A stretch of 64,000 bases of DNA. It comes from Candidatus Omnitrophota bacterium (GTDB lineage: Bacteria > Omnitrophota > Gorgyraeia > B26-G9). The position numbers and the translations under genes were made by a program. Location of the stretch: positions 8,127 to 72,126 of the forward strand of contig JAZDHZ010000021.1 of assembly GCA_043805415.1 (NCBI GenBank). The letters run 5' to 3'. Below, piece by piece: positions 30,417-62,354 of this stretch. How positions within the stretch are numbered: the first letter of the stretch is position 1; the number at the start of each line of letters is the position of its first letter. The notes beneath the pieces were generated by a model. That model was not told the DNA's origin, ran no database searches, and was given only the letters and a program-made list of their open reading frames with translations.

Positions 30417-31123
30417 AAAATATGAATAAGATATATGATAATTTAGAAAAAATAGCCTGTTTTACGATGGTAAGTATTTTGATAATCAGCAGTTATTTTT
30501 TCATTACAAGCAATGCTGAGTATAAAATATTTGTAGAGCAAAAGAAAAGTGAATTAGCAGATATGGATAGGCAATTTGTGGCAAAATCAGCTGAGCCGGG
30601 AACTTTACTATCAAGAATTGATGAAAAAACAAAGATTGATTTACTGAAAGTAAAAAGGAATATTTTTGCTCCGTTTAAGGATGATGATGAGAAAAGACAA
30701 TATTCTAATAATTCCGTGTTGGAGGTATTGGATATTGCCTATAAGCCATTGGCCTTTCAATATCAAGGAAGAATAATTTATCCTAATGGACAGATTGTAG
30801 CGCAGATTAATGCTGATAATAAAAGCTATTTAGTAAAGACTGGTTCAAACTTGGGAAAATACAAGGTTGGGCAATTGGATAAAGATTCAATTAATTTAAA
30901 AACTAAACAAGGTGAAAATGTAACTATTAAATATCTGCAGACAGCGTTTAGTGATGAGTTAATGGCAAAAATAAAAGAAAGTATTTCTGGAGAGATTGAA
31001 ACAGTTTATAAAAACAGTGATATATACGGCTATAAGGTGCTTGACATTGAGGAAGATTGTGTGATATTATCTAAGTCAGGACAGCACCTAAGGTTACAGA
31101 AAGGAATGGTGCAAGCAAAATGA
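30413..31123 (+). CDS. PilP-like protein (N-terminal anchor, beta-rich C-terminus)
   Basis: Position between the pilO-like gene and the secretin. Overlaps both neighbours by 4 nt. Confidence 0.4.
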   Translation: MKNMNKIYDNLEKIACFTMVSILIISSYFFITSNAEYKIFVEQKKSELADMDRQFVAKSAEPGTLLSRIDEKTKIDLLKVKRNIFAPFKDDDEKRQYSNNSVLEVLDIAYKPLAFQYQGRIIYPNGQIVAQINADNKSYLVKTGSNLGKYKVGQLDKDSINLKTKQGENVTIKYLQTAFSDELMAKIKESISGEIETVYKNSDIYGYKVLDIEEDCVILSKSGQHLRLQKGMVQAK

Positions 31124-33057
31124 AACGATTTTTCTTCTTTTTAATTCTAATATCTTTTTTCTTATCTTCTGCTCAAAGCGGGGTTTGCCAAGAAATCGAT
31201 ACGAGTAGTTTTGAGCAAGAGCGGGCTTTAGGGCTTGCTAATCAGATCGCACAGCAAAAATATTCAGTGGCTCAAACAGATACAAAGTACTTAAGTGCCG
31301 ATGTCGCTGATTTAGTCAGCAAAGGATATGATGCTTGGGCAAATCTTGATTTTGAACAGGCAAAGTTATTTTTTAATAGCGCGCTGAATCTTGAACCGAG
31401 TAATTCTGATCTCTCGGAGCTTATTTATGGGGTTGAAAAAGCGCGATTAGAATATGAGCGTGATAAGGTGAAAACAGAATTGTCTCTTTTGCAGGAAAAA
31501 AAAGTGCTTGATTCAGAGAAAGCATGGCTTATCGATGAACAGCAAACCACAGTTTCTACCGCGAAAATTAAAAAACCAGAGGTAGCTGCTTTAAAACAAA
31601 AAGCAATGCAGAAAAATGTCAGCATAGATTTTACCAACGCGCAGATTAGTAATGTGCTTGAGTTTTTATCAGAAGTCAGCGGAATTAATATTATTATGGA
31701 TGAGACCGCTGTAGCGAGCGCGGGAAATATCGGCATTCATCTGAAAAATGTTAGTTTAGTCCAGGCCTTAGAATCAATATTGCGCTCTAAAGGACTTGGT
31801 TATCGTTTTGAAAATGATTTTATTTGGGTTAGTTCTCAAGCTGATATTGCCAATGAAGGTTTAGTTGTGCGTGTATATCATCTTTCTCAAGGCTTAGCAA
31901 GTTTTACTTATTTTACTACTTTTGACACGGTTACAGTTGAGGGAGTGCGGGCAGATAATAAAATAGTTTTAGGCGATGCTGCTGGTGAAGAAGGCACTGA
32001 TAGCTCTGGGGTGCGGACTTTTGAAGGGATAAAAGTCGGTGGGCCCAGCGGAGTCGCGGGTAAAATAACAATGACAATTGAAGATGTTTTAAAACAAGTC
32101 GTTGATTGGCCGGAAACAAGTAAGATATTCCTGGATAATCGGACAAGTACTCTTATTGTTAGAAATACCCCGAGCAATATTGCGGTTTTAGAAGAAGTTT
32201 TAGCGGCAATTGATGTAAATCCTCCCCAGGTTATGATTGAAGCAAGGTTTGTGGAAATCGGCGCGGATGATTTGTATTCTTTGGGGCTTAAGATGAATGC
32301 TGAGATTTCTGGTCAAGGGGCATCAGCTCCGACATCATTTCCGTTTAATAAAAACAATGATGGAAAATTCGCAGCTGCTTTTCCTAATCCAACAACTGAT
32401 GAATTTAATGTGGGTAAGCTTGATTTTTCACAGTTCCAAGCGGTTATTTCTGCTATAGAAAGAAATACTAATAGCAATACTCTTTCTTCTCCGAAGATCA
32501 CTACAATTAGCGGGCAAGAAGCAGTAATAAAGATAGTAAAAGAATATCGATATCCCACAAAATATGAAATCGAAGTATTAAAGGTGGAAGATGCTAGTGG
32601 TAATACGGTTACCCAGTCTTTTCCCGTTCCGGTTGAATTTACAACCCGCGATATTGGAATAATTTTAAAAGTTACCCCTAATGTTGGTGCTGATGAGAAG
32701 ACAATCAATATGACGGTTATTCCAGAGGTTAGTGAATTTGACACAACCAAAGACTTTTTTAATTATGGGACAGCTGAAAGACCATTTTTACAGCCTTTTT
32801 TCAATACGCGGAACGCGACAGCAAGTATCATCGTTAATAATAATGAAACTGTTGTCATGGGCGGACTGATGCGGGAAGTTGTAGAAAAGGGGGTTGACCG
32901 TATTCCAGTGCTGGGGAGTATTCCGTTGATTGGAAATTTATTTAGCCGCAAAGTTGACAATAAACAAAAAAGAAATTTATTGATTTTTGTTACAGCAAGA
33001 ATAATCAGTCCTACTGGCCAAACAGTAGCAAAAAAATATTTTTTTGAAGAGTTATAA
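31120..33057 (+). CDS. pilQ: Secretin (PilQ/GspD family) outer-membrane channel
   Basis: TLIVRNTPSNIAVLEEVLAAIDVNPPQVMIEARFVEI (N-domain / secretin junction). C-terminal ETVVMGGL...IPVLGSIPLIGNLF...LLIFVTARII. Signal peptide present. Confidence 0.9.
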   Translation: MKRFFFFLILISFFLSSAQSGVCQEIDTSSFEQERALGLANQIAQQKYSVAQTDTKYLSADVADLVSKGYDAWANLDFEQAKLFFNSALNLEPSNSDLSELIYGVEKARLEYERDKVKTELSLLQEKKVLDSEKAWLIDEQQTTVSTAKIKKPEVAALKQKAMQKNVSIDFTNAQISNVLEFLSEVSGINIIMDETAVASAGNIGIHLKNVSLVQALESILRSKGLGYRFENDFIWVSSQADIANEGLVVRVYHLSQGLASFTYFTTFDTVTVEGVRADNKIVLGDAAGEEGTDSSGVRTFEGIKVGGPSGVAGKITMTIEDVLKQVVDWPETSKIFLDNRTSTLIVRNTPSNIAVLEEVLAAIDVNPPQVMIEARFVEIGADDLYSLGLKMNAEISGQGASAPTSFPFNKNNDGKFAAAFPNPTTDEFNVGKLDFSQFQAVISAIERNTNSNTLSSPKITTISGQEAVIKIVKEYRYPTKYEIEVLKVEDASGNTVTQSFPVPVEFTTRDIGIILKVTPNVGADEKTINMTVIPEVSEFDTTKDFFNYGTAERPFLQPFFNTRNATASIIVNNNETVVMGGLMREVVEKGVDRIPVLGSIPLIGNLFSRKVDNKQKRNLLIFVTARIISPTGQTVAKKYFFEEL

Positions 33058-43545: not shown

Positions 43546-43812
43546 GTGGCAGTTATTATTCGTTTATCAAGATTAGGGACAAAAGGAAAACCGCATCATA
43601 AAATTGTTGTTATAGAACAGCATAGACCAAGAGACGGTCGATTTATTGAAGAAATTGGTTATTACAATGCTTCACTTAAGCCAGCAATGGTTGAAATTAA
43701 AGAAGAGCGTGCTTTATATTGGATTAGCGTTGGGGCAAAACCAACAGGAACTGTAAAAAGAATCTTAAAAAATAAAATTATCTCTTTGCAAGGTAAAAAG
43801 GAGACAAAATAG
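43546..43812 (+). CDS. rpsP: Ribosomal protein S16
   Basis: MAVIIRLSRLGTKGKPHHKIVV. Confidence 0.9.
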   Translation: MAVIIRLSRLGTKGKPHHKIVVIEQHRPRDGRFIEEIGYYNASLKPAMVEIKEERALYWISVGAKPTGTVKRILKNKIISLQGKKETK

Positions 43813-44117
43813 TGAAACGTGCTATTTTATTTATTTTGGCTGGCTTGATGGTTTTTTCTGTTTCGGGATGTAAAACTCTAAATGAGTTTATTAAACCCGA
43901 GGGAGAAGAGGCATCAATAAAGGCTGATGAGTTAAACCTTGATAATGACCAAGCATATCTCTTGCGCAGCTGGTATCATAATGCGGTTTTATCAGAAGAT
44001 GTGGGGGATTATAATACAGCAATTATGTACTATTCAAAGATTGTTGAGTATTTTCCGGAAACTAAAAAAGCGGCTATGGCCAAAAAACGGCTTAAGGTGC
44101 TAAATAAAGCGCATTAA
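43812..44117 (+). CDS. Small lipoprotein (TPR-like helix pair) occupying the usual rimM position
   Basis: Lipobox FSVSGC. Not RimM-like (no PRC barrel, only 101 aa). Confidence 0.5.
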   Translation: MKRAILFILAGLMVFSVSGCKTLNEFIKPEGEEASIKADELNLDNDQAYLLRSWYHNAVLSEDVGDYNTAIMYYSKIVEYFPETKKAAMAKKRLKVLNKAH

Positions 44118-45795: not shown

Positions 45796-45958
45796 TTTTC
45801 TCTTGTATTTTGAATAATTCTCTTAAAATAAAATCTTATCAAAAATTGGCATAAAAAGTTAAAAAATGGTAAACTTTACTAATTTTTAATTAAATTAAAA
45901 TTAACTTAACCTTATGCGATCAAATGATAAATAGAATTTACGCTTTTACGGGGAAGAT

Positions 45959-48900
45959 ATGATTACCGGTAAAAAACTTCAAATATTTAAAAAAACACTG
46001 GCCTTGGTTTGCGGGTGGAGTTTCCTTTGCCTAAATAATGCGCTGGCTTTTAGCTGTCTTGATTATGCTCAGCAGGATAATTGTTTGAGTCCGCAGGTGA
46101 ACATTGCTAGTACGTTTTTTGTCGATAATTTTCAGAAAATCACAAGAACTCCGCGTTGGCTTAGACCGGATATTGTTGGTTTCTTTGGCGGTACAGGAGG
46201 CAATATTGCCGGCAATGTTTTAAGTTTCAGCGATTTAAATCAGTTCTTAACGGAAAAATTATTTGTCAGTTTTATTATCTCACCGCATGATGATGGCGGT
46301 TCTTCTGTTATTCTGCAGAGAGTTTTATCGGAATATCTTGGGTATACTCTTTCTCCAGGGGACACAAATAATATATTCTCCGGACTGACCACCAGTTATT
46401 TTAAAAAGCGGGTTCTGAGAACGCGTTTTGAAGAGAATATCTCCGGAACACTTTTACGCGATAAGCTGGAAAAAATTATCACCGCTACTGAAGATTTGGC
46501 CAGGTCCAGGCCTTTATTTTTAGATGAACAAAAAGAAAAAACAGTTAGCAAAATAACGATTGAAGGTATTGATTATCCAGTCAGTTTTGACTCACAGAAT
46601 AAGCGGTTTATATTTAATCAGGGTAAAGAAGCGGGGATTAATCAGAAGCTAATATTTGAAAAAGAGCAATTTATCATTAAACAATATGAGGGGAAAACAA
46701 TATTGTGTTTCATCCCTGATGAAAATAATTCAGAAGCCTTAACTTATGACTTGAAAACTAATTCTAATTGGGCACAGTTTAAACAGCAAATTCTAGAACT
46801 TGCCCAAAGTTTTGATCAGGAGTTTATAAACCCGAAAACTAAAACTTTGCCGGGAAAAATTGTTGATATCTCTTCCGGAAGCATGGGGAATTTTTTAATT
46901 GCCGCTAAGATGATTCAAACAGGGGTTTATGATCCTAAAAGAAAAGATTTAATTGATCAGGTTAAATACCACCAGGGTATTCAGGAGCTGTGTGATTTGC
47001 TGGATATTGATAATGGCTTTGTCAGTTGTTCAACTTTTGATCCGGCGATTTTGTATGTAAAACTTGCTTCAATTGCTATTGAAAAAGACAATAAAGCTTT
47101 ATTGCTGGATGGGAATAATGAACAGACTTTAAAGGCCAGCGGAATACTGATTGATAAAATAGACCGCGGCCGCGGAGTATTTGATATTAATTGCGAGGGT
47201 TCGGAAAATTCTCGGCGCACAAAGTTTGGTTTAAAAATCCGGGAATATATTGAAGGTTATGTATACAGGAATAAACCGGGCCGGGAAGACAGTTATTCAG
47301 AAGTGAGTTTGCCTTTAGATGTACTGGCGCAATATCCGGTTACGCTTAGCTATAATGGGCTTGAACTGAGTCTAAAAATCGCGAATCAGAAAATAGTTAG
47401 TCTGGACTATGAAAAAGATGGGAAAGATGAAAAAGTTAAAAAAGTTGGCAAAATTACTCAAGCGCAATTAGCAAAGCTTGAATCAGAAGGGCGGATTATT
47501 TTTGCTTTGCCGGAAACGGTTGCGTCGGCTTCAGCTACGGAGATGCGAAGCTTGCCGCGATTTTATATTGACGCAAAGTCAGGAAACTTGCAGATAGTTC
47601 TGGATACTAAGGGAATAGGCGTTGGGCTTTCAATAAATGGAGTGCAGTTAAAAATAAAAAGCCGTCTGGTTATTGAGCAGACAAATATAACCGAGGGGCT
47701 GCATCACTGCGGAATAATTGATTTTGGTTTTTTAAATAATGTTAAGCCGCGGGTTAACAAACATAGCCTTTTAGCGATGGAGAATGCTCCTTTGTTAATT
47801 ATGGGGCCAGGCAGTCAGTATACAAGCTTAATGTCGCTTTTACTTATTCCGGAAATCGTCGAAGCTTTGAAGCAAAGGGTTGCCAGCGGTAAAGAAAATC
47901 TGTTTATTTTTAATCCCTTAAGAGATAATGAAACTGTTGATAGTCAAAGTGTAAGGGATATTATTAGTGATATTGAGCGGATTACAGGAGTTGAGTTTGG
48001 GGAAATATTTAATAATGCGGTAGTTAATGATAGTCAAGCATTTCTGGAAGATTTTTCTAAAGCTGAAGACGATTTTAGGGCATTGGGAGAATCATCTCCT
48101 GATTATTTCGCGGCAAAACAATTATATGAAAAATATTTTAAAATGAACAGCTTAATGAATGAGATGAAAGATAAAAAAACATCAAAGACAAGAAAAGCAT
48201 CGAGTTTTTCCAAGCTGGCAAAATATTCAAGAGGTAGAATTAGTTTTGACGAAAATGATTTAAACGCGCTGATAGGCCAGGGTGTGGAAGTTTATAAAAC
48301 AAGAGTTATCTTGAGCTCCCGGGAAGTTCGCGAAAAAGGAAAGGCGCTGAAGGAGGAATCGATAAGATATGATAATGCTCAGATCGCGAATATTATTGAT
48401 CAAATACTTTGGAAGCGGGGAGCGGTATTTAAGCAGGATGAAAAATTAGGCAGACTCAGGCAGCAGCTTATTGACGAATATTTTGACGGAGATGCCGCTG
48501 AATTTGACAAAGCAAGCGAACGGATAAGAAATGAAGGGATCTTGAAATCAAGGAGTCCGGCCGCTACAGCAAGGTATATATTTGAGCGTTTGGTAAAAGA
48601 GGATTTTGTTTTTTCTGATAAGCAGCAGAAAGCTCTTTTGGGAAAGAAGGTAATAATTACTAATCTTAAGCATACGCTTTGTATGAAAAACGGGATTACG
48701 CCAAAAATAAAAAAAGAGCTAGAGGTGTTTTTAAAGAACAATGGTAAATTAATCGTTATTAGCGGTTTTGAAGTTGGAGAGATGAAGCGAAGGCTGCTTG
48801 ATTTTGTGGATAAAAGTTTATGGAGTTCAATTGTTTTAGTGGCTAATTACGGAACAGAGGCATGGTACTGGGATCAGCAGCAAGCAAAGCTAATGAGCTT

Positions 48901-49630
48901 ATTTACTTCTTTTTATGAAGAAGCCGGTATTACTGATGAGCAAAGAGCCAGATGGCAGCAAATAGTGGATAATACTGTGTTAGAGTATGGTCTGGATAAA
49001 CCGCTGAGAACTAAGTCCGTAAGTATGGATAAAACCATCGCGGAAGTTGAAGATCGGGGAACAATGATTGCTTTACGCTTGGGATCGCGGCTTTATCTGC
49101 ACAGCTTAAACCTGATTACCCTGGCAAATAGGCGCTTGAACGAACAGTATTTACCGTTGATTGGGGCTGATGGTGTTTTGCGTACTCCGATGCTTGAGCG
49201 TTTGAATAATATGTTTGCCAAATATGATCTGCCGATAAGCGCTGTTTTGGGCGGAACAGGCACGATTAATACCATGGTTAAAAAAGCAGCGGATAAAGGC
49301 GATGTTATTCAGCGGGTATTATGGGCAGCTAAAGATAAGGGATTGCTGCCCAGGGAAAACCTTGAGCAGCAGCTGCTGATTATGGGTAAGGGCAATTATG
49401 AAATAGCCAAAAAACTGGAATCTGATCAGGTGCCTTGGCTGGTGTTTCGGCTGCCGCGTCAATCTACTAAATATATGATTGAATTTAAGAAAAAGTATGG
49501 GGTCCAGGCTGCTGAGGTGTTTTTAGAACAGCTGAATCTTATCAAAAGCTCTCTTGAAGCAGCTAAAATATTGATTAAAGTATATGATTCTGTTCCTGGT
49601 AATTTAGATTCAATCGGTCAGGCGATATAG
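45959..49630 (+). CDS. Giant (1223 aa) exported YvcK/CofD-family (UPF0052 'gluconeogenesis factor'/LPPG-transferase fold) protein with a ~450-aa insertion and a ~500-aa C-terminal extension
   Basis: Signal peptide TLALVCGWSFLCLNNALA|FS. The family N-terminal half is IVGFFGGTGGNIAG...FIISPHDDGGSSVILQRV...LSPGDTNN. The family C-terminal half appears ~450 aa later (LLIMGPGSQYTSLMSLLLIPEIVEALK ... NAVVND). Confidence 0.55.
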   Translation: MITGKKLQIFKKTLALVCGWSFLCLNNALAFSCLDYAQQDNCLSPQVNIASTFFVDNFQKITRTPRWLRPDIVGFFGGTGGNIAGNVLSFSDLNQFLTEKLFVSFIISPHDDGGSSVILQRVLSEYLGYTLSPGDTNNIFSGLTTSYFKKRVLRTRFEENISGTLLRDKLEKIITATEDLARSRPLFLDEQKEKTVSKITIEGIDYPVSFDSQNKRFIFNQGKEAGINQKLIFEKEQFIIKQYEGKTILCFIPDENNSEALTYDLKTNSNWAQFKQQILELAQSFDQEFINPKTKTLPGKIVDISSGSMGNFLIAAKMIQTGVYDPKRKDLIDQVKYHQGIQELCDLLDIDNGFVSCSTFDPAILYVKLASIAIEKDNKALLLDGNNEQTLKASGILIDKIDRGRGVFDINCEGSENSRRTKFGLKIREYIEGYVYRNKPGREDSYSEVSLPLDVLAQYPVTLSYNGLELSLKIANQKIVSLDYEKDGKDEKVKKVGKITQAQLAKLESEGRIIFALPETVASASATEMRSLPRFYIDAKSGNLQIVLDTKGIGVGLSINGVQLKIKSRLVIEQTNITEGLHHCGIIDFGFLNNVKPRVNKHSLLAMENAPLLIMGPGSQYTSLMSLLLIPEIVEALKQRVASGKENLFIFNPLRDNETVDSQSVRDIISDIERITGVEFGEIFNNAVVNDSQAFLEDFSKAEDDFRALGESSPDYFAAKQLYEKYFKMNSLMNEMKDKKTSKTRKASSFSKLAKYSRGRISFDENDLNALIGQGVEVYKTRVILSSREVREKGKALKEESIRYDNAQIANIIDQILWKRGAVFKQDEKLGRLRQQLIDEYFDGDAAEFDKASERIRNEGILKSRSPAATARYIFERLVKEDFVFSDKQQKALLGKKVIITNLKHTLCMKNGITPKIKKELEVFLKNNGKLIVISGFEVGEMKRRLLDFVDKSLWSSIVLVANYGTEAWYWDQQQAKLMSLFTSFYEEAGITDEQRARWQQIVDNTVLEYGLDKPLRTKSVSMDKTIAEVEDRGTMIALRLGSRLYLHSLNLITLANRRLNEQYLPLIGADGVLRTPMLERLNNMFAKYDLPISAVLGGTGTINTMVKKAADKGDVIQRVLWAAKDKGLLPRENLEQQLLIMGKGNYEIAKKLESDQVPWLVFRLPRQSTKYMIEFKKKYGVQAAEVFLEQLNLIKSSLEAAKILIKVYDSVPGNLDSIGQAI

Positions 49631-49774: not shown

Positions 49775-52741
49775 ATGTTTATGTCGCAAATTCAAAAAAA
49801 CATTAATCGTAACTTTTCCTATCTACTGATATTTCTGCTTATTCAGGGCATGATTATTAGTCCTGCTTTGGCATTAAATAATCCTGTTTTGCCCGAACAT
49901 TTAAGCCCGCGGATAAATATTAACTATACCGCATTTTCGGATTTGATCAAAACCTCCTATTCTGATGCTTCCAAAGCTCTTGCTGAGCTTCCGGAAACAA
50001 ATGAACTGAATTTACTAGATATCAGCTATCAAAAAAAACAGAGAGCTATTTTGCAAGATGAAATTATTGATCGCTTTAAGCAGAATTATCCGGATAGTCT
50101 AGAGCAGTTAGAGATGATTAAAGTTTTTTTTGGAATAGCACTAGAGCATTATGAAGAGCAACAGTTTGAATCAGGAGAGTTCTACTATAACCATTGTCTA
50201 GAAGTAGCTGCAATTGCCGCGAAAAATAAAGCGGGATTTATCGAAATCCTGGCAGCTATTTTTCATCGCATGCCAACCAATAAGATTAATCCAGTGATTG
50301 CGTCTTTGGCTAAAACCGCAGGAATTGGAAAAAATAAGAGTGAATCATTCCGCAAATATGAATTAGTTGAAATTAATGGACTAATTAAGAAATTTTCCAA
50401 AATAGCTGATCTTAAATACTATGCGCATTCGCAGGGAGCAAATTCTATTGAAAATTTTATGGGTGCTGTACTTAATATGATGGAGGGGGATCCTAGGATC
50501 AGGCGTCTTGTTTTTGCGGACAAAGAGGCCTCAATTGCTCATGCGTCTGAGACTGAAAAAGCGGATATTGTTAAAGAAATCCAAAGTATTTATGGGCCTT
50601 TTGCCGGACGTTTTGGCTTGTTTGAAATTAAAAAAGAATTAGAAAATTCTATTTTTAAAATTCATAATCCAAAAGGTTATGAGCTGGTAATGAAAAAAGT
50701 ACGCAATACTTATGGTGTGGATTATAAAGATCTTAATGATTCCTTGGATAAAACTAAAGCGCTTATTCAGAAAATTGCTGATGATAATCAAATTGATGCG
50801 ATTATATTGTCGCGGGTAAAGGCTCCTTACCGAATTTATGTGAAAGAAAAAATCGCGGGAAAAGGTAAAGGGCAAAAAGATACTTTATACGGAGTTGATA
50901 CGATTGGGATTAAGGTTATTTGTAAGACTGAGGATTGTTTTTATCAAATGACCACTCGGATCCGACAGGCTTTAAATGATAAAAAGCTGGGGAATTGGAA
51001 AATAGGGAAAATTAAGGCCATAGCATCAGGTATAACTTATATTAATTTGGTGGAAATTGAAGGATTGGGTAATTTAGAAGTGCAGTTTCTTACCAAAGAG
51101 GCTGATGATTTGCGAGAAATAAATTTTGCCCATTGGTCGTATGAGATAGCTAGACAAACGAATCGCAAACAGAAATTTGACAAAGTAGAGGATTTTGGTT
51201 TTTACCAATTGCGTGAAATGTATCAAAACGCGATAGATGATCCTGAGCGTAAAGATGTGGATATTAATACTGTGACAGAGGAGTATTTTAAAAGTGTTTA
51301 TGACCATAACAAAAAATGGGTTTATATTTTTGAAAAGTCTTCAGAAATTATTGATGGACGAGAAGTTGATGTTGTTAAACCAAAAAGATTGGCAAAAGGC
51401 GCGAATGGCCCTGTGTTTGCCGCTCAAACAGGAGTTGATTTATTTGATAAGAATTATGATGGCTTAGTTTTTTATGAATGGCGCGGTTCAAAACTTGTTC
51501 CAAAAAGAAGACAATATAATGATCTTAATCAGCTTAAAGACGGTGATATTGTAGCTGTAAAAACAACTGCGGATGGTTTGCTTGATAAATTAGAGAAAGA
51601 TAAAGGCTACGAAGCTAATCTGTTTAGCAGCATAAGAGGGTTTTTGCGTTCAACAATACTGCTCGCGCAAGTAGGTTTGTCGGAAAGTGACAAGGTCCGA
51701 TATTATAAAAATGCGCAGTCTTTTCTTAATAAATCTTTTAGTCAAAAAGGAATTGTTTGGGGTAAAAGTGTCCAGAGCAAATTTCCGCAAAACGCGAAAT
51801 ACATGCAAAATTTCCTCAATGAATTTGCGGTCTCAAAAAAACTTAAAAATTCTGATGAGCTTTTAATGGGTTTAGCTTTAAAGCTTATTAATAGTTCAGA
51901 GGTTGTTGATTGGGCTAAAGAACGCGGAGCGGATCTTTTGAATACAATACAGGTTGATGACCCAGGGATTAAGGCGCAGGTTGAAAATATCTATGGTTCA
52001 TTAGATAAACTATTTATTGAAGTCGGGATTGGTGAAATCAGCGTAGAAAAGGTAATTAAAAAACTGAGAGATCAGCAAAACGTTAATGTAAGTATGATGC
52101 CTACAATATCCGGAGATTATTCAGGAAGATTTGAGTACAGTATTGAAGTCAGAGAGCCTGATAAAAAAGCAATTTCAGCAAGAACCCGAGAAATTAAAGC
52201 GCGGATAAAAGAAATATTAAAAACTCAGGGGATCGAGCTTGGTGAGCAGTCTTTTAATGATAAGAAAAGCCGAAAAATTAAAGGTGGCTTTCTGGTTAAC
52301 TTTGAAATTCCAGTAAGATATGAGCAGCTTCCTAATATAAGAACAGCTTTGCTTTCAGGTTTAGAAACAAGTATCAAAGTAAAGACCAAAAGGGAGAAAA
52401 AAGACAAAGAAAAGGCTTTGACGTCTATTGGTCTTATTATTAATGTGAAAAACAAAAAGGCAGTTAGTTCAATAATTAAAAGATCAGTTAATATCGGGAT
52501 CAATGCGCTCAAGAATTATGATTTTGATGAAAAAAATGAGCAGCTGTCTTGTGTCATTGAATATGACCAGATGAGTTATGATTTAACGTCGATTCTTAAG
52601 GTTCTTAATGTTTCGCTTAAAAACGTTACGCTTGCTGATGAAAACCAAGGTTTTATTGAAGCCGCGGAATTGCAAAAAAAGTTAAAAAGAAAACAAGCGC
52701 AACCACTTGAAAACGCTAGTTTAATTGAATCGGCGATATAA
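49775..52741 (+). CDS. RelA/SpoT-homolog (RSH)-like large protein with an N-terminal Sec-type signal / TM anchor and a degenerate hydrolase motif
   Basis: N-terminus FSYLLIFLLIQGMIISPALA|LN. HCLEVAAIAA...AAIFHRMP resembles the HD-domain region, but HD is replaced by HR. IYGPFAGRFGLFEIKKELENSIF corresponds to Rel 'LYAPLAHRLGI..IKWELEDL'. Synthetase-like block RVKAPYRIYVKEK...DTIGIKVIC...EVQFLT...AHWSYE. Confidence 0.55.
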   Translation: MFMSQIQKNINRNFSYLLIFLLIQGMIISPALALNNPVLPEHLSPRININYTAFSDLIKTSYSDASKALAELPETNELNLLDISYQKKQRAILQDEIIDRFKQNYPDSLEQLEMIKVFFGIALEHYEEQQFESGEFYYNHCLEVAAIAAKNKAGFIEILAAIFHRMPTNKINPVIASLAKTAGIGKNKSESFRKYELVEINGLIKKFSKIADLKYYAHSQGANSIENFMGAVLNMMEGDPRIRRLVFADKEASIAHASETEKADIVKEIQSIYGPFAGRFGLFEIKKELENSIFKIHNPKGYELVMKKVRNTYGVDYKDLNDSLDKTKALIQKIADDNQIDAIILSRVKAPYRIYVKEKIAGKGKGQKDTLYGVDTIGIKVICKTEDCFYQMTTRIRQALNDKKLGNWKIGKIKAIASGITYINLVEIEGLGNLEVQFLTKEADDLREINFAHWSYEIARQTNRKQKFDKVEDFGFYQLREMYQNAIDDPERKDVDINTVTEEYFKSVYDHNKKWVYIFEKSSEIIDGREVDVVKPKRLAKGANGPVFAAQTGVDLFDKNYDGLVFYEWRGSKLVPKRRQYNDLNQLKDGDIVAVKTTADGLLDKLEKDKGYEANLFSSIRGFLRSTILLAQVGLSESDKVRYYKNAQSFLNKSFSQKGIVWGKSVQSKFPQNAKYMQNFLNEFAVSKKLKNSDELLMGLALKLINSSEVVDWAKERGADLLNTIQVDDPGIKAQVENIYGSLDKLFIEVGIGEISVEKVIKKLRDQQNVNVSMMPTISGDYSGRFEYSIEVREPDKKAISARTREIKARIKEILKTQGIELGEQSFNDKKSRKIKGGFLVNFEIPVRYEQLPNIRTALLSGLETSIKVKTKREKKDKEKALTSIGLIINVKNKKAVSSIIKRSVNIGINALKNYDFDEKNEQLSCVIEYDQMSYDLTSILKVLNVSLKNVTLADENQGFIEAAELQKKLKRKQAQPLENASLIESAI

Positions 52742-56992: not shown

Positions 56993-57622
56993 ATGACTGA
57001 CAAGTTAGAGAAACTGACTAAACAGATTTATGATGAAGGTATCGCAAAAGCTGACCAGCAGGCAGAAAAAATAATTAAGGCGGCAGAAGAGGAAAAGAGA
57101 AAAATCCTGCGCGCGGCGCGAAAAGAATCAGAAGATATTATTTCAGTCGCGCATAAAGAATCAGAAGAATTAAAGCATATGGTCAATTCTGAGCTGCGGA
57201 TGGCAACCCAACAGTCCTTGGCCCTGCTTAGACAAAAAATCACAGAATTAATTTCCGTGAAAGTTACCACCGGCGCAGTGGAAGGGTTTTTTGATGACTC
57301 GGATTTTTTAAAGAAAATCCTGGAGATTGTGATGAAGGAATGGCTTGGCTCTGGCTGTCATCAAGGACAAGAGTTTTATTTAAAATTACCCAAAAAGGTT
57401 CAAGCAGAGATACAAGATCATTTCTTTATCGCTGGCAAGCAAGAACTGAATAAAGGCTTAAAAATAGAGTTTGATGAAAAGATAAAAAGCGGTTTTATAA
57501 TCACGCCCAAAGACGGCAGCTATAGAATTGGGTTTACAGAAGATGATTTTAAAGCACTGATTCAGTATTTTCTCCGGCCGAGGATGACCAGATTTCTTTT
57601 TGGAGAAAAGGCAAATGAGTAA
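56993..57622 (+). CDS. V/A-type ATPase subunit E
   Basis: ~200 aa with an N-terminal K/E/A coiled coil (IYDEGIAKADQQAEKIIKAAEEEKRKIL), and first position in the operon. Confidence 0.7.
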   Translation: MTDKLEKLTKQIYDEGIAKADQQAEKIIKAAEEEKRKILRAARKESEDIISVAHKESEELKHMVNSELRMATQQSLALLRQKITELISVKVTTGAVEGFFDDSDFLKKILEIVMKEWLGSGCHQGQEFYLKLPKKVQAEIQDHFFIAGKQELNKGLKIEFDEKIKSGFIITPKDGSYRIGFTEDDFKALIQYFLRPRMTRFLFGEKANE

Positions 57623-58454
57623 TTATTATTATTTAATTTCTTCATTGCCTGAATTGCGTTTAGATGATTATAAAGAGCCGTATCGGGTTAATGAGTTTAT
57701 TGACGAACTTTATGCTAATCTTGAATCTGAGCACGCGGAATATGTTCAGGACATACTATGCATGAATGACAATCCGAATATAGTCGATATTGTTTCCGGC
57801 AGCGGTAATACTTGGCTTGACGCAAGGGGCAATTGGACTTTTGAAGAACTGAAATCTTTTTTTGATAATCCGGAAGCTTTGGATGAAAAAGAACACGCGT
57901 ATATTCTGGGTTTTATAAACTCCTTGGCTGGATTTAAAAAAGAGGAACAAAAAATAAACCGCTATAAAGCTGAGGAATTACTTTTGGGCGGGTTTTACGC
58001 GAAAATGATGCGGCATAAAAATTCTTTTATCCGTGATTATTTCAGTTTTGATTTTAAGCTGAGAAATGTTTTAATGGCGATAAATAAAAGAAAATTCAAT
58101 CTCGATAAAATTCCCTTATTAGAAGTGGGTGAACATGAAGTTGTAAGAAAACTGCAAACATCCACGGCCAATGATTTCGGCTTGTCCCTGAGCCTTGATT
58201 ATATGCAATCCTTATTAGCTGCTTTTGAAAAAGATGATATTGTTTATCGCGAAAAGTTTATTGATCAGCTGCGCTGGGAGAAAATAGATCAAATTAATAC
58301 TTTTTCTTATTTTAAAGTTGATGTTTTACTGGGATATTTAATTAAATTAATGATGGTAGAGCGATGGATTGCTATGGGAGCAAGCCGCGGACATGAAGCC
58401 TTGGCTAAGATATCAAAAGTAGATCCAGGGATTTTAAATAAAAAATTTAATTAA
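57600..58454 (+). CDS. V-ATPase operon protein between E and A (DUF2764-like / putative C-subunit analog)
   Basis: Positional call only. Bacteroidetes/Chlamydiae V-operons carry an uncharacterised gene at this slot. Confidence 0.4.
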   Translation: MEKRQMSNYYYLISSLPELRLDDYKEPYRVNEFIDELYANLESEHAEYVQDILCMNDNPNIVDIVSGSGNTWLDARGNWTFEELKSFFDNPEALDEKEHAYILGFINSLAGFKKEEQKINRYKAEELLLGGFYAKMMRHKNSFIRDYFSFDFKLRNVLMAINKRKFNLDKIPLLEVGEHEVVRKLQTSTANDFGLSLSLDYMQSLLAAFEKDDIVYREKFIDQLRWEKIDQINTFSYFKVDVLLGYLIKLMMVERWIAMGASRGHEALAKISKVDPGILNKKFN

Positions 58455-58516
58455 TTTTAAAAAAATCGAATAAGGGTTTTAGCTTTAAAAATAAAAGAAA
58501 TAAATTCGGAGGAAAA

Positions 58517-60274
58517 ATGCGAACAAAAGGACAGGTTGTCGGGATAGTATCAAATCTGATTACTATAGAAGTTGATGGACCGGTTAGTCAGAATGAAATA
58601 TGTTATATCATGCTTGACGAAACCAAATTAAAAGCTGAGGTTATTAAAATAAATGGAAAGAACGCCTTTGCTCAGGTGTTTGAAAGTACCCGCGGCTTAA
58701 AAGTAGGCAGCCTGGTTGAGTTTACTGATCATTTGCTGGAAGTTGAACTCGGACCTGGGCTGTTATCACAAAAATATGACGGTTTGCAAAATGATTTAGA
58801 AGCAATGACCGGAGTTTTTTTAAAACGCGGAGAAATGACCACTCCTTTTTCCTATGAAAAAAAGTGGGAATTTATCGCTTTAGCAAAAAAATCAGACAAA
58901 GTGCAAGCTGGAGACTGGTTGGGAGAAGTTAAGGAAAATTTTATTAGCCATAAGATAATGGTACCGCTAAAGCTCGAAGGGATTTGGCAAATAGATTCTA
59001 TCGCGTCTAAAGGTGAATATACCGTAAAAGATACTATTGTTGTGTTAAGAAATTCTCAGAAAGAAACTGTTGATGTTACCATGACCCAGCGCTGGCCAGT
59101 TAAAGTGCCGATTCGGGCTTATGCCAATAAACCGATCGCGTTTAAAACTTTGCAGACAGGGGTTCGGCTGATTGATACAATCAATCCGATTGTTGAGGGA
59201 GGAACTGGCTTTATTCCCGGACCATTTGGCTGCGGAAAAACAGTTTTACAGCATATTATTGCTGCTAATGCCCAGGTTGATATGGTAATTATCTGTGCTT
59301 GTGGTGAACGGGCTAATGAAGTGGTCGAGATATTTAAAGAATTTCCTGAGCTTGATGATCCGAATACTGGCCGCAAATTAATGGAAAGAACCATTATTAT
59401 TTGCAATACATCCAATATGCCGGTTGCCGCCCGTGAGGCTTCGGTGTACACGGCCATGACCATTGCTGAATATTACAGACAGATGGGAATAAAAATATTG
59501 TTATTAGCTGATTCGACATCACGTTGGGCTCAAGCATTAAGGGAAATGTCAAATCGCATGGAAGAACTTCCTGGCCCAGACGCTTTTCCCATGGACCTTA
59601 CCGCGATAGTAGCAAATTTTTATGCCAGGGCAGGAATGGTGGAATTAAATAATGGCCAGACCGGATCAGTAACTTTTCTTGGCACAGTGAGCCCTGCCGG
59701 AGGAAATATGAAAGAACCTGTGACTGAATCAACTAAGAAGGTGGCAAGATGTTTTTATGCTTTATCCCAGCAGAGAGCGGATAGCAAGCGATATCCTTCA
59801 ATTGATACCATAGAAAGTTATTCTAAATATCTGGAGTATAAAGAAGTGCAGGAATATTTAGAAGAGCACTTTGAACCGCATTGGATTGAGAAAATTGCTT
59901 ATATCAAAGATATATTACTCCGCGGTAAAGAAGCCTATGATCAGATAAATATTTTAGGTGATGATAGCGTGCCGATTGAATATCATCAGCGTTTTTGGAA
60001 ATCAGAATTAGTTGATTTCGGGTTTTTACAGCAAGATGCTTTTGATCCTGTTGATAAAGCTACTTCTTTAGAAAGACAACGTTATATGCTGGATATTATT
60101 TATAATATTTGTGACGCGGAATTCAAATTTGACGGGTTTACAGAAGTGTCGGCTTATTTTAAGAAAATAATTAACATTATAAGGCAGATTAATTTTTCAG
60201 AATTTCAAAAGGAAGAGTTTAAAAATTTTGAAGATGAATTGCAAAGCACTTTAATGGAAAGGAAACTATCATGA
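58517..60274 (+). CDS. V/A-type ATPase catalytic subunit A
   Basis: GPFGCGKTVLQH P-loop, the non-homologous insert region, and 585 aa. Confidence 0.95.
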   Translation: MRTKGQVVGIVSNLITIEVDGPVSQNEICYIMLDETKLKAEVIKINGKNAFAQVFESTRGLKVGSLVEFTDHLLEVELGPGLLSQKYDGLQNDLEAMTGVFLKRGEMTTPFSYEKKWEFIALAKKSDKVQAGDWLGEVKENFISHKIMVPLKLEGIWQIDSIASKGEYTVKDTIVVLRNSQKETVDVTMTQRWPVKVPIRAYANKPIAFKTLQTGVRLIDTINPIVEGGTGFIPGPFGCGKTVLQHIIAANAQVDMVIICACGERANEVVEIFKEFPELDDPNTGRKLMERTIIICNTSNMPVAAREASVYTAMTIAEYYRQMGIKILLLADSTSRWAQALREMSNRMEELPGPDAFPMDLTAIVANFYARAGMVELNNGQTGSVTFLGTVSPAGGNMKEPVTESTKKVARCFYALSQQRADSKRYPSIDTIESYSKYLEYKEVQEYLEEHFEPHWIEKIAYIKDILLRGKEAYDQINILGDDSVPIEYHQRFWKSELVDFGFLQQDAFDPVDKATSLERQRYMLDIIYNICDAEFKFDGFTEVSAYFKKIINIIRQINFSEFQKEEFKNFEDELQSTLMERKLS

Positions 60275-61620
60275 GCCGCCAACCACCAGCATTTAAAACG
60301 GTCTATACCAAGATCGAGCAGATCACCAAAGCGACCTGCTCATTAAAAGCTAATGGTATCGCTAATGAGGAAATGGCAACAATTGATGGCCGCCCGGCTC
60401 AAGTAGTTAAAATTCAAGGTGATTTAGTTACCTTGCAGGTTTTTTCCGGAACGCAAGGTATTGGTACAGATGTGGATGTTATTTTTATGGGAGAGCCGCC
60501 GACATTAAGAGTAGGCGATGATTTATCCGGGAGATTTCTTAATGCCTATGGCCAGCCAATTGATGGCGGCCCTGATCTGGAAGGAAAAAAAACCCCGATT
60601 GGCGGGCCAAGTGTTAATCCAGTGCGTCGGGAACAGCCGTCAGAATTAATCAGTACCGGGATCGCCGGGATTGACTTAAACAATACCCTGGTTACCGGAC
60701 AAAAAATACCTTTTTTTGCTGATCCTGACCAGCCTTATAATCAGGTGATGGCCGATGTTGCCCTGCGGGCTAAAGCTGATAGAATTATCCTTGGCGGTAT
60801 GGGACTTTCCAATGATGATTATCTTTATTACCGCAGAGTTTTTGAAGATGCCGGTGTTTTAGAAAAAATCACTTGTTTTATTAATACCAATGATGATCCT
60901 CCGGTAGAAAGATTATTAGTTCCCGACATGGTGCTAGCCGCGGCTGAATATTTTGCGGTTGAAAAAAAGGAAAAAGTATTGGTTTTACTTACTGATATGA
61001 CATTATTTTGTGACGCATTGAGTATTGTTTCAAACCGAATGGATCAAATTCCCAGTAAGGACAGTATGCCGGGATCGCTGTATAGTGATTTGGCTAAAAT
61101 ATATGAAAAAGCAGTACAATTTAAAGAAGGCTCAATCACGATTATTGCTGTAACTACACTTAGCGGTGGAGATATTACTCATGCTATTCCGGATAATACG
61201 GGTTATATTACAGAAGGCCAGTTATTTTTGCGGCGGAATACCGATATATCTAAAGTTATTATTGATCCGTTTAGAAGTCTTTCCAGACTTAAACAATTAG
61301 TTATTGGTAAAAGAACAAGAGAAGATCATCCTCAGGTTATGAATGCCGGGGTTAGGCTTTATTCTGACGCGGCAAATGCTAAGACAAAAAAAGAAAATGG
61401 TTTTGATCTGACTGATTATGATGAACGGGCATTAAAATTCGCTTATGATTATGCTCAGGAATTATTGGCCATAGATATTAATATTGATGTGGATAAGATG
61501 TTAGATACAGCCTGGAGATTATTTGCTCAATATTTTCAAAAGGATGAAATTGCCATAAAAGAAGAAATAATGAGCAAATACTGGCCGAAAAATATCGAAG
61601 GCGTAAAAAGCAGCGTATAG
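60271..61620 (+). CDS. V/A-type ATPase subunit B
   Basis: 449 aa. Homologous to A/beta but without a P-loop. 4-nt overlap with A. Confidence 0.9.
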   Translation: MSRQPPAFKTVYTKIEQITKATCSLKANGIANEEMATIDGRPAQVVKIQGDLVTLQVFSGTQGIGTDVDVIFMGEPPTLRVGDDLSGRFLNAYGQPIDGGPDLEGKKTPIGGPSVNPVRREQPSELISTGIAGIDLNNTLVTGQKIPFFADPDQPYNQVMADVALRAKADRIILGGMGLSNDDYLYYRRVFEDAGVLEKITCFINTNDDPPVERLLVPDMVLAAAEYFAVEKKEKVLVLLTDMTLFCDALSIVSNRMDQIPSKDSMPGSLYSDLAKIYEKAVQFKEGSITIIAVTTLSGGDITHAIPDNTGYITEGQLFLRRNTDISKVIIDPFRSLSRLKQLVIGKRTREDHPQVMNAGVRLYSDAANAKTKKENGFDLTDYDERALKFAYDYAQELLAIDINIDVDKMLDTAWRLFAQYFQKDEIAIKEEIMSKYWPKNIEGVKSSV

Positions 61621-61763
61621 CGGACAGCGTTTAGCGAATAGAAAAAGCAGGAAAAAGTTATCGAGTTAACGCGTTTACGTGTTTGCGGGTTAAAAAATAA
61701 AATCAGTTAGTTTTTTACGCAATACGCGATACGCACGACGCAATACGAAACAGAGGATCAATC

Positions 61764-62354
61764 GTGGCACAGATACAATATAATAAAACTGCTCTGCTTA
61801 AGATCAATAAAGACTTGTCAATGCGTCAAAACGCATTGCCTGTATTACGCAGCAAAGAATCAGCCTTAAGAGCAGAAACAAGAAAAATCAGAGCTAAGAT
61901 CAAAGGCTTAGAGCTAAGCCTTGAACAGTTGAAAGCAACGCTTGAGCCGATGGAGCGATTATGGGTAGAATTTCCGGATATTGTTAAAATTGAGAAGATT
62001 AACTTTGTGCAGAAAAAAGTAGCGAGTATTGCTGTGTTTAATATTGAGGGAATTGATTTCAACACAGAAGATATAAGTTTTTTTGCTTATCCCTCATGGG
62101 TATCGCAGGGAATAGAAATTATTAAAAACCTTTTATTTTTACAAATGGAATTGATTAACGAAAAAAATATTCTGGATAGTGTTGAATATGCCCGCCGTAA
62201 AACTACCCAGAAAGTCAATCTCTATGAAAAAGTACAGATACCATTTTTCGAGGAATCAATTCGCAGGATTAAACGGTTTTTAGAAGATCAGGATAACCTG
62301 TCTAAATCTTCACAGAAAGTAATTAAAAACCGGATGGAGGCAGCCTTGATATGA
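61764..62354 (+). CDS. V/A-type ATPase subunit D (central stalk)
   Basis: MAQIQYNKTALLKINKDLSMRQNALPVLRSKESAL corresponds to the D-subunit N-terminal helix. 196 aa. Confidence 0.8.
   Translation: MAQIQYNKTALLKINKDLSMRQNALPVLRSKESALRAETRKIRAKIKGLELSLEQLKATLEPMERLWVEFPDIVKIEKINFVQKKVASIAVFNIEGIDFNTEDISFFAYPSWVSQGIEIIKNLLFLQMELINEKNILDSVEYARRKTTQKVNLYEKVQIPFFEESIRRIKRFLEDQDNLSKSSQKVIKNRMEAALI

Follow-up and report, generated by a model that had tools for sequence, protein, structure and literature searches.

An enlarged YvcK/CofD-like protein of Omnitrophota with a putative Sec signal peptide and a degenerate phosphomannomutase-like domain

YvcK/GlmR proteins (UPF0052; TIGR01826; PDB structures 2ppv, 2hzb and 2o2z) consist of a single domain of about 320 amino acids (aa) and carry no signal peptide, and their gene is part of a yvcJ(rapZ)-yvcK-whiA operon (PMC7525490). 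For the Listeria protein, whose reaction involves UTP and GlcNAc-1-P, residues D40, D41 and N198 have been proposed as catalytic (10.1101/2021.10.27.466214), and in Bacillus subtilis GlmR the UDP-sugar is bound by Y265 and R301 (PMC7525490). CofD/FbiA, the LPPG:Fo 2-phospho-L-lactate transferase of F420 biosynthesis, belongs to PF01933, the same Pfam family as the protein described here. To our knowledge, only small cytoplasmic proteins have been described for either YvcK/GlmR or CofD. The subject of this work is a protein of this family encoded in a stretch of 64,000 nucleotides (the window) of contig JAZDHZ010000021.1, which comes from an uncultured member of the Omnitrophota. Its gene, an open reading frame (ORF) at positions 45959-49630, on the plus strand like all the features located below, codes for 1223 aa that comprise a signal-like N-terminus, a YvcK/CofD fold interrupted by three insertions, and a phosphomannomutase-like C-terminal domain in which catalytic residues have been replaced. 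It is nearly four times as long as a normal YvcK or CofD protein, and in this respect is as oversized as an earlier note, made from the DNA sequence alone, had claimed.

Two other groups of proteins are close to this one in different ways. Giant signal-bearing proteins with sugar-metabolism domains have been reported for Omnitrophota (West-Roberts et al. 2023, 10.1101/2023.11.21.568195; 10.64898/2026.06.07.730766). A surface coat or a part in adhesion has been proposed as their role, and published accounts differ on their cytoplasm-type sugar-metabolism domains, which are taken either as truly extracellular or as mis-assigned. Sec-exported enzymes of the RelA/SpoT family, which act on extracellular nucleotides, have been shown experimentally (Ahmad et al. 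2025, PMC12691689); here a normally cytoplasmic, nucleotide-handling family is exported via Sec, although it is a different family from CofD/YvcK. Our best reading of the protein is that it is a free-standing copy of a cassette, composed of a CofD-like part and a dead HAD domain, which is otherwise embedded in the Omnitrophota giants.

The reading frame and its YvcK/CofD fold

The ORF starts at an ATG, the first possible start codon after an in-frame stop codon (ending at 45934), and is uninterrupted. A search of 5.8 billion clustered proteins returned three full-length orthologues, with 77-78%, 58-59% and 56-57% identity, one of which derives from a metagenome-assembled genome (MAG) listed at NCBI as 'Candidatus Omnitrophica'; orthologue P0001 is named 'YvcK family protein' at NCBI. 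The length, odd for the family, and the metagenomic source might suggest an artefact of assembly or gene calling, for example a chimeric contig or a frameshift that joins two or three genes. We assign practically no probability to this explanation. It is effectively refuted because the three orthologues, which come from separate collections (NCBI/JGI/Logan, ENA and JGI), share the same unbroken end-to-end architecture. The GC content of the ORF (0.38) is also that of the surrounding window. The ORF is real.

The 163-bp spacer 5' of the gene contains a sigma-70-type promoter, found in a consensus scan at 45846..45875 (TTGGCA-18-TAAACT, with an upstream TG giving an extended -10), which may also be written as TTGGCA-17-TGGTAAACT. 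Its -35 hexamer and a TGGTA.A.T block are invariant across the four orthologous intergenic regions amid diverging flanks, which supports the independent promoter already noticed in the earlier note. A purine-rich GGGGAAG (45950..45956), read from the sequence 2 nt 5' of the ATG, weakly suggests a ribosome-binding site. No intrinsic terminator was found in a scan around the gene.

Family assignment was based on profile searches. PF01933 matches residues 571-694 with 52.8 bits, well above its Pfam gathering score of 30 (E 4.3e-14), and the top NCBIfam match is TIGR01826 (YvcK) with 51.8 bits, which does not reach the curated cut-off of 196 bits. The YvcK chains 2hzb and 2o2z of the PDB match at about E 4e-7, together with a weak collinear stretch at the N-terminus. 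No CofD-specific NCBIfam model matched at E<=1, and the GAK-CofD-like model gave 20 bits; in sequence the protein is nearer to YvcK than to CofD, and no F420 genes were present among the scanned ORFs of the window. Separate Pfam scans of the N-terminal 191 aa, of a 429-aa 'insert' and of the C-terminal 538 aa yielded nothing usable.

For a profile-profile comparison (hhalign), the protein and its orthologues were aligned together with the homologous regions found in larger relatives (A3), and this alignment was set against eight canonical YvcK-type sequences of about 320 aa. The global alignment covers 324 of the 327 YvcK positions over residues 66-829 (probability 99.9%, E 6.8e-36), with an N-lobe, a middle segment and a C-lobe that are collinear with the YvcK family. 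The N-lobe (residues 66-185; 46154..46513) bears GGTGG (77-81), DDGGSS (111-116) and PGD (133-135), and aligns on its own (residues 62-185) with YvcK 3-99 (probability 96.5%, E 7.5e-10). The middle segment (residues 285-378; 46811..47092), with GSMGN at 307-311 as the GSxGN motif, matches YvcK 84-138 (probability 93.3%, E 2.7e-7). The C-lobe (residues 570-700; 47666..48058) contains RLVIEQTNITE, GPGSQYTS (616-623), NPLRDNET and NAVVND (685-691), and aligns alone with YvcK 144-255 at E 1.8e-21. The fold ends with C-terminal strands and a helix (residues 758-829; 48230..48445; IRYDN at 802-806), which fall on YvcK 265-327 in the global alignment and alone give a weak match that is in register (E 0.02). 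The signature motifs cited in the earlier note thus lie where it had placed them, and its assignment of both halves to CofD/YvcK holds.

An AlphaFold2 (AF2) model of residues 60-1223, obtained from an 11-sequence alignment (pLDDT 78.5, pTM 0.75), was compared with known structures using Foldseek. The YvcK structure 2ppv could be aligned over 753 query columns with a TM-score of 0.81 (normalised to 2ppv), and the pieces are therefore predicted to reassemble into one YvcK fold, which answers a check that the earlier note had suggested for the two halves. By both alignment and model, a complete YvcK/CofD fold spans residues 66-829. The roughly 500 further residues that had been placed after the family signatures are present, but about 130 of them still belong to the YvcK fold, and only then do a linker and a HAD-IIB domain of about 330 residues follow.

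The fold had also been described as split by a single insertion of about 450 aa, which is ruled out by both the global and the piecewise hhalign comparisons. A genuine piece of the fold, residues 285-378, lies between the signature blocks, and there are therefore three interruptions, not one, of about 100, 190 and 57 aa (about 350 aa in total). Insertion 1 (residues 186-284; 46514..46810) is a small beta-rich unit with a long helix, modelled by AF2 as seven strands and then the helix; its beta part is absent from most copies of the cassette in giant proteins. Insertion 2 (residues 379-569; 47093..47665) is a large beta-rich region in place of a short YvcK hairpin, aligns to only about 7 YvcK positions, and has an AF2 secondary structure of mostly strands. 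Insertion 3 (residues 701-757; 48059..48229) is helical in the AF2 model. On their own, none of the three showed similarity to YvcK in hhalign, and a separate AF2 model of residues 175-575 (pLDDT 74.5) gave no match in the PDB better than E 0.03, with very low TM-scores.

The protein and YvcK/GlmR share the overall fold and the motifs GGxTG, DDGGS, PGD, GxSxGN and GPGSxYTS, but NPxRDNET is found where YvcK has N(V/I)MTQPGE. The four orthologues show no variation in GGTGG, DDGGSS, PGD and GPGSxxTS, and the giants retain these motifs for the most part. Of the residues proposed as catalytic in Listeria GlmR, D40 and D41 have their equivalents in D111 and D112, whereas the counterpart of N198 is L627, at a position that varies (V/I/E/H/L) across the cassette family; the CofD residue at this position is presumably hydrophobic, as it is here. 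R803, within IRYDN, is aligned to the Arg of '(I/V)RH(D/N)' in YvcK, which we tentatively equate with R301 of B. subtilis, while the region of Y265 coincides with insertion 3 and is poorly aligned.

The HAD-IIB-like domain and the relatives in giant proteins

A helical linker of lower pLDDT (about 60), assigned from the AF2 secondary structure (residues 830-892; 48446..48634), connects the YvcK fold to a phosphomannomutase-like HAD-IIB domain (residues 893-1206; 48635..49576). A PDB profile search with the C-terminal alignment gave no match, and the assignment came from intermediate sequences and the predicted fold. In Foldseek, the best matches to the whole model include, besides several phosphomannomutases, the atypical alpha-phosphoglucomutase 4bnd (E 1.2e-10, TM 0.68). 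The domain also aligns over 294 columns with free-standing HAD-IIB relatives of about 325 aa (hhalign probability 99.6%, E 7e-25), which themselves match Pfam Hydrolase_3 and NCBIfam HAD-IIB weakly, as well as sugar phosphatases and phosphomannomutases of the PDB. It has the Rossmannoid core and the type-IIB cap, i.e. the core-plus-cap fold of HAD-IIB phosphomannomutases (4bnd, 6i5x, 2amy) and of Cof-type phosphatases (PfHAD1, 4qjb).

The catalytic motifs of these enzymes, DxDxT and GD, are replaced by N-x-K-x-T and GK. Motif I reads T901-N902-L-K904-H-T906 (ITNLKHT) against D-V-D-D/E-T in the free-standing relatives, and at motif IV (GDxxxD, Mg2+) the sequence IMGKGN (1141-1146) aligns with IWGD of the active relatives. 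Both replacements (ITNLKHT and MGKGN) are invariant in the orthologues; the Ser/Thr of motif II is present as an invariant S935-G936. A HAD enzyme devoid of the nucleophilic Asp cannot form the phospho-aspartyl intermediate, and the aspartyl-phosphate mechanism is thus unavailable to this domain, which we therefore read as catalytically dead. Judging from these residues, neither phosphatase nor mutase activity is to be expected, but the domain may still bind a phosphate ester.

Word-indexed searches, performed with the protein and again with an 11-sequence profile, returned the same three orthologues only, and an exact-sequence query of the assembly collection gave no record of the window's own protein. 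When 1.84 billion representatives were scanned in full with HMMER, 69 relatives were obtained, the best of which, after the orthologue, are proteins of 1500-3750 aa containing the same segments in the same order; all four of those that have a source organism name come from Omnitrophota MAGs and are labelled 'CofD family protein' by NCBI. Seven further loci emerged when species-representative genomes were scanned. At five, the frame of the cassette overruns both ends of the fetched 6-15 kb, and the resulting minimum lengths are >2154, >3416, >5022, >5057 and >5148 aa. The closest relative outside the orthologues (L007; JAIWAR010000003.1, 1-15172; 33% identity) is the ORF of >5057 aa, which has a PGM_PMM domain; the whole cassette, insertions included, aligns to it as one block (664.6 bits), and a second CofD-like copy comes after this block.

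The CofD-like part of the cassette forms a distinct branch, marked by the motifs RLVIEQTNITE and NPxRDNET. Every cassette copy examined has Asn at the HAD nucleophile position (NLKHT, NLAHT, NVNYT, NFAYT, NMAYT, NAAYT, NFAGT, NFANT, NFKHT, NGAHT and NVAFT), whereas HAD copies located elsewhere in the same giants, or free-standing, retain DxDxT. The giants contain further domains, namely an ARMT1-like phosphatase, active HAD-IIB/PMM/S6PP, PGM_PMM, the TreT glycosyltransferase N-domain (TreT_GT1), LbH and a metallo-beta-lactamase, and their common theme is sugar-phosphate and nucleotide-sugar chemistry. Signal-like N-termini are found in 18 of 32 long Met-starting family members, compared with 2 of 24 short YvcK or HAD relatives.

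With the Omnitrophota giants, the protein has in common the phylum, the cassette (in their case within ORFs of >5000 aa) and the pairing of a signal peptide, putative in our protein, with cytoplasm-type sugar-metabolism domains. On the other hand, it is 10-100 times smaller, and possesses one cassette, no transmembrane helix, a housekeeping locus and its own promoter. It does not belong to the giant class proper (at least 10,000 aa), for which only the cassette is common.

The earlier note regarded an exported giant derivative of this fold as apparently not described. Full-text searches brought up no paper on such a protein, nor any that connects CofD/YvcK with a signal peptide or with Omnitrophota, and term counts showed no mention of the CofD-like cassette in the main text of the two preprints on Omnitrophota giant genes. 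The protein is not a one-off, however: the cassette recurs in proteins of 1500 to >5000 aa, database entries for relatives already exist under generic names, and signal-bearing giants with cytoplasm-type enzyme domains are an already published theme.

Some further observations concern the relatives themselves. A conserved block, 'hIHIQDAHxNxxAQ', occurs at about positions 60-100, shortly after the signal, in several giants of the family (P0016, P0023, P0026, P0037, P0044, P0047 and P0068), and received no Pfam assignment in our scans. The MAG into which the contig of L007 was binned is labelled 'Methanosarcinales archaeon'; at 37.6%, the GC content of the fetched locus resembles that of our window. 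The contig may be a mis-binned one from Omnitrophota, which would be of interest because some Omnitrophota have been proposed to attack the cell walls of Methanosarcinales (10.1101/2023.11.21.568195). Three other cassette contigs (L008, L011 and L012; GC 0.38-0.54) are labelled as Elusimicrobiota and Planctomycetia/Planctomycetales MAGs, and these labels may reflect a wider distribution, gene transfer, or errors of binning or classification.

The N-terminus and the shared terminal motifs

Residues 1-30 (45959..46048), MITGKKLQIFKKTLALVCGWSFLCLNNALA, form a putative Sec signal peptide with predicted cleavage between ALA and FS. Its n-region contains K5, K6, K11 and K12, the h-region is TLALVCGWSFLCL, and the c-region is NNALA, with A28-L-A30 preceding F; a hydrophobic core of 12-13 uncharged, mostly hydrophobic residues is thus followed by a polar stretch ending in A-L-A. 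The features of a Sec and signal peptidase I substrate, i.e. a charged n-region, an h-region and small residues at -3 and -1, are found in all four orthologues. A or S at -3 and A at -1 are kept, and the core has remained hydrophobic in spite of changes in its sequence. Over codons 1-34, the changes relative to L001 are biased to the third position (11 synonymous, 11 conservative). P0003, which was called from an internal Met, has the same N-terminal layout if started at the upstream GTG (L005:2447).

The strongest hydrophobic stretch of the protein lies within these 30 residues. No other 19-aa window scores above 1.33 on the Kyte-Doolittle scale, which is below what a membrane helix needs, and with no second hydrophobic segment nothing would return the protein to the cytoplasm. 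Signal-like calls, both here and in the relatives, were made by hand reading and a crude heuristic. With these features, Sec export appears well motivated. The classic Sec signal that had been noticed earlier therefore stands as a set of conserved features, while the export claimed along with it is better described as predicted. Two other types of signal were considered and rejected. AFSC33 makes a poor lipobox and C33 is replaced by Leu or Gln in the orthologues, which speaks against a lipoprotein signal, and a Tat signal would require a twin-arginine motif, which is missing.

Beyond the putative signal peptide lies the motif LSPQVNIASTFF (residues 43-54; 46085..46120), whose L43, S44, P45 and Q46 are invariant in the orthologues. 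The product of the neighbouring downstream gene, which is not homologous, carries the matching LSPRININYTAF (49901-49936). An 'LSPxhxI' motif located 10-25 residues past the putative cleavage site is shared by the target family, this neighbour and several otherwise unrelated giants (P0006, P0010, P0012, P0023 and P0037 carry the LSP motif at the N-terminus).

A second similarity is found at the opposite end. The protein terminates in SIGQAI-COOH (49610..49627), with I1219, A1222 and I1223 invariant in the orthologues, and the neighbour in LIESAI (52721-52738). A tail of the type h-x-[EQ]-[QSA]-A-[IA]-COOH is common to non-homologous proteins, including these two and giants; it was seen in P0012, P0016, P0026, P0022, P0044, P0007, P0034, P0023, P0025, P0019 and P0006, with examples such as IGQAI, LIESAI, FVESAI, LIQQAA, LVEASA and IAQSA (forms xESAI, xQQAA and xxSA). 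Most tail carriers with a complete N-terminus are also signal-like at that end. The pattern [AS][AILV]$ is found at the C-terminus of 19 of 40 long members of the family, compared with 3 of 49 other ORFs of the window and 1 of 27 short relatives. The tail could be a sorting signal, a ligand of a PDZ domain or tail-specific protease, or a degron; we found no description of such a C-terminal tail.

The terminal motifs common to the protein, its neighbour and the giants may point to a shared sorting or processing route. A bolder version of this idea, which we regard as a long shot, is that the cassette marks an Omnitrophota cargo class that would perform nucleotide-sugar/sugar-phosphate chemistry outside the cytoplasm, at or inside prey, and would be routed by an unrecognised two-ended sorting code. 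The code would consist of the Sec signal, 'LSPxhxI' and the h-x-[EQ]-[QSA]-A-[IA]-COOH tail.

Proposed function and genomic surroundings

Based on our observations we suggest, with belief and doubt about evenly balanced, that the protein is a Sec-exported, soluble, two-module protein, whose enlarged YvcK fold would have nucleotide-linked sugar phosphates as ligands or substrates outside the cytoplasm. The conserved sigma-70-type promoter would drive its transcription independently. Signal peptidase I would cut after Ala-Leu-Ala30, and a protein of about 1190 residues, without a membrane segment, would enter the periplasm, from where outward passage may be provided by the type II secretion/type IV pilus-like machinery encoded upstream. 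The mature protein would comprise two obligately coupled modules. Of these, the YvcK/CofD module would be expected to bind a nucleoside-diphosphate-linked ligand, e.g. a UDP-sugar, because GGTGG, DDGGSS, PGD, GSxGN and GPGSxxTS are kept. It might also transfer a phosphoryl or nucleotidyl group, by analogy with Listeria GlmR and with CofD (nucleoside-diphosphate-linked donor, nucleoside monophosphate released), whose attack on a phosphodiester donor linked to a nucleoside diphosphate is a plausible model for its chemistry. The HAD-IIB module would most plausibly act as a non-catalytic sugar-phosphate binder or as a structural buttress of the first module. The site of action would most likely be the cell surface, or prey or host material, with sugar-phosphate or nucleotide-sugar compounds as the substrates. 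The Sec-exported RelA/SpoT enzymes that act on extracellular nucleotides (PMC12691689) are a published precedent, and the presumed life of Omnitrophota on, or at the expense of, other cells could supply nucleotide-sugar-type compounds outside the cytoplasm.

Several points weigh against this proposal. The main difficulty is that nucleotide sugars and nucleoside triphosphates are not expected in the periplasm, which leaves an exported YvcK-like domain without an obvious substrate. The equivalent of the GlmR residue N198 has been lost, the insertions match nothing in known folds, and the signal heuristic is also positive for about 30% of the ORFs of the window. Furthermore, the neighbouring gene product has degenerate catalytic motifs (see below), so the enzyme folds in such proteins may be non-catalytic. 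Finally, the housekeeping setting (rpsP-trmD-rplS-rnhB; rny-ymdB) would fit a cytoplasmic regulator of cell-wall precursors, like GlmR.

The last point raises the alternative that the protein is a housekeeping GlmR/YvcK orthologue, on the cytoplasmic side and maybe membrane-held, which senses or makes UDP-GlcNAc and coordinates cell-wall synthesis, its extra domains being regulatory. We consider this rather unlikely. The gene indeed has a conserved position, as rpsP, a small ORF, trmD, rplS and rnhB precede it in all loci, and downstream of it three of the four loci contain a RelA/SpoT-like gene (930-1006 aa), an ORF of 123-134 aa with no family match, and genes for 5-FTHF cyclo-ligase, rny and ymdB. 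Cell-wall functions are also nearby: an EPSP_synthase-family gene (murA or aroA, not distinguished) is located upstream in the window, and at L004 the downstream genes are an EPSP_synthase-family gene, mreBCD, a gene for a PBP2-type transpeptidase and rodA. However, this is not the operon of YvcK, since rnhB upstream and a RelA/SpoT-like gene downstream take the place of yvcJ(rapZ) and whiA, neither of which was found among the scanned ORFs of the window or in related loci. In the same way, the match of D111/D112 to D40/D41, TIGR01826 as the top NCBIfam model and the name given to P0001 agree with a GlmR orthologue, but the score (51.8 against 196 bits), the Leu in place of N198, the size and the signal depart from the YvcK/GlmR subfamily. 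The four lysines before the hydrophobic core predict an N-in orientation with the rest of the protein outside, and the core itself, only 12-13 residues long, is followed by a conserved A-x-A. The closest relatives, moreover, are not YvcK proteins of 320 aa but cassettes in giants, many of which are signal-like.

A different alternative, to which we attach a low though real probability, is that the protein is exported but wholly non-catalytic, both folds being pseudoenzymes that have been reused as binding or building modules of the cell surface or of an attachment apparatus. The neighbour is relevant here. This gene (49775..52741), which adjoins the target in three of the four orthologous loci, encodes a divergent RelA/SpoT-like protein of 988 aa that matches HD_4 (E 1e-10), RelA_SpoT weakly, and TIGR00691 with 88.6 bits against a cut-off of 499. 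Like the exported alarmone synthetases (PMC12691689), it is RelA/SpoT-like and signal-bearing (its N-terminus reads IISPALA before the putative cleavage site and LN after it), but its catalytic motifs are degenerate: the hydrolase HD dyad reads HR and the synthetase QxRT reads QFLT. It may be a pseudoenzyme. The loss of these motifs next door, the absence of all three catalytic Asp residues from the HAD domain in every cassette copy, the beta-rich or helical insertions that decorate the fold at three places, and the proposed role of giants as a surface coat or in adhesion are all in line with a non-catalytic protein. On the other hand, GGTGG, DDGGSS, PGD and GPGSxxTS have stayed invariant down to 56% identity, a strictness typical of a working site, although ligand binding without catalysis would also explain their retention.

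The upstream part of the window contains two type II secretion/type IV pilus-like gene sets (8546-33057), 13-37 kb from the target gene. They comprise four T2SS-E ATPases (one fused to PilZ), a separate PilZ protein, two T2SS-F proteins, PilM, pilin-like ORFs and a secretin (31120-33057). The small ORF between rpsP and trmD (101 aa; 43812-44117) has a good lipoprotein signal (FSVSG before C), occupies the same position in L001-L003 and has no family match. A V/A-type ATPase set with DUF2764 and the A, B and D subunits is encoded at 56993-62354, and an ORF of 987 aa at the left edge of the window (9-2972) gave no Pfam match at E<=1e-5. All long ORFs lie on the plus strand, and each 2-kb bin of the 64 kb has a positive GC skew; this is the picture expected if the window is leading strand of a single replichore and gene-strand bias is very strong. 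The PADLOC models of anti-phage defence gave no match for the target protein or its two downstream neighbours.

An exported, thrice-enlarged YvcK/CofD protein fused to an inactivated phosphomannomutase-like domain would broaden the known uses of this fold. The protein might also constitute a practical handle on the Omnitrophota giants, which are themselves too large to test. As it has one cassette, one putative signal peptide and no transmembrane helix, standard fusions, ligand screens and structural work could address the question of whether such domains act outside the cytoplasm.

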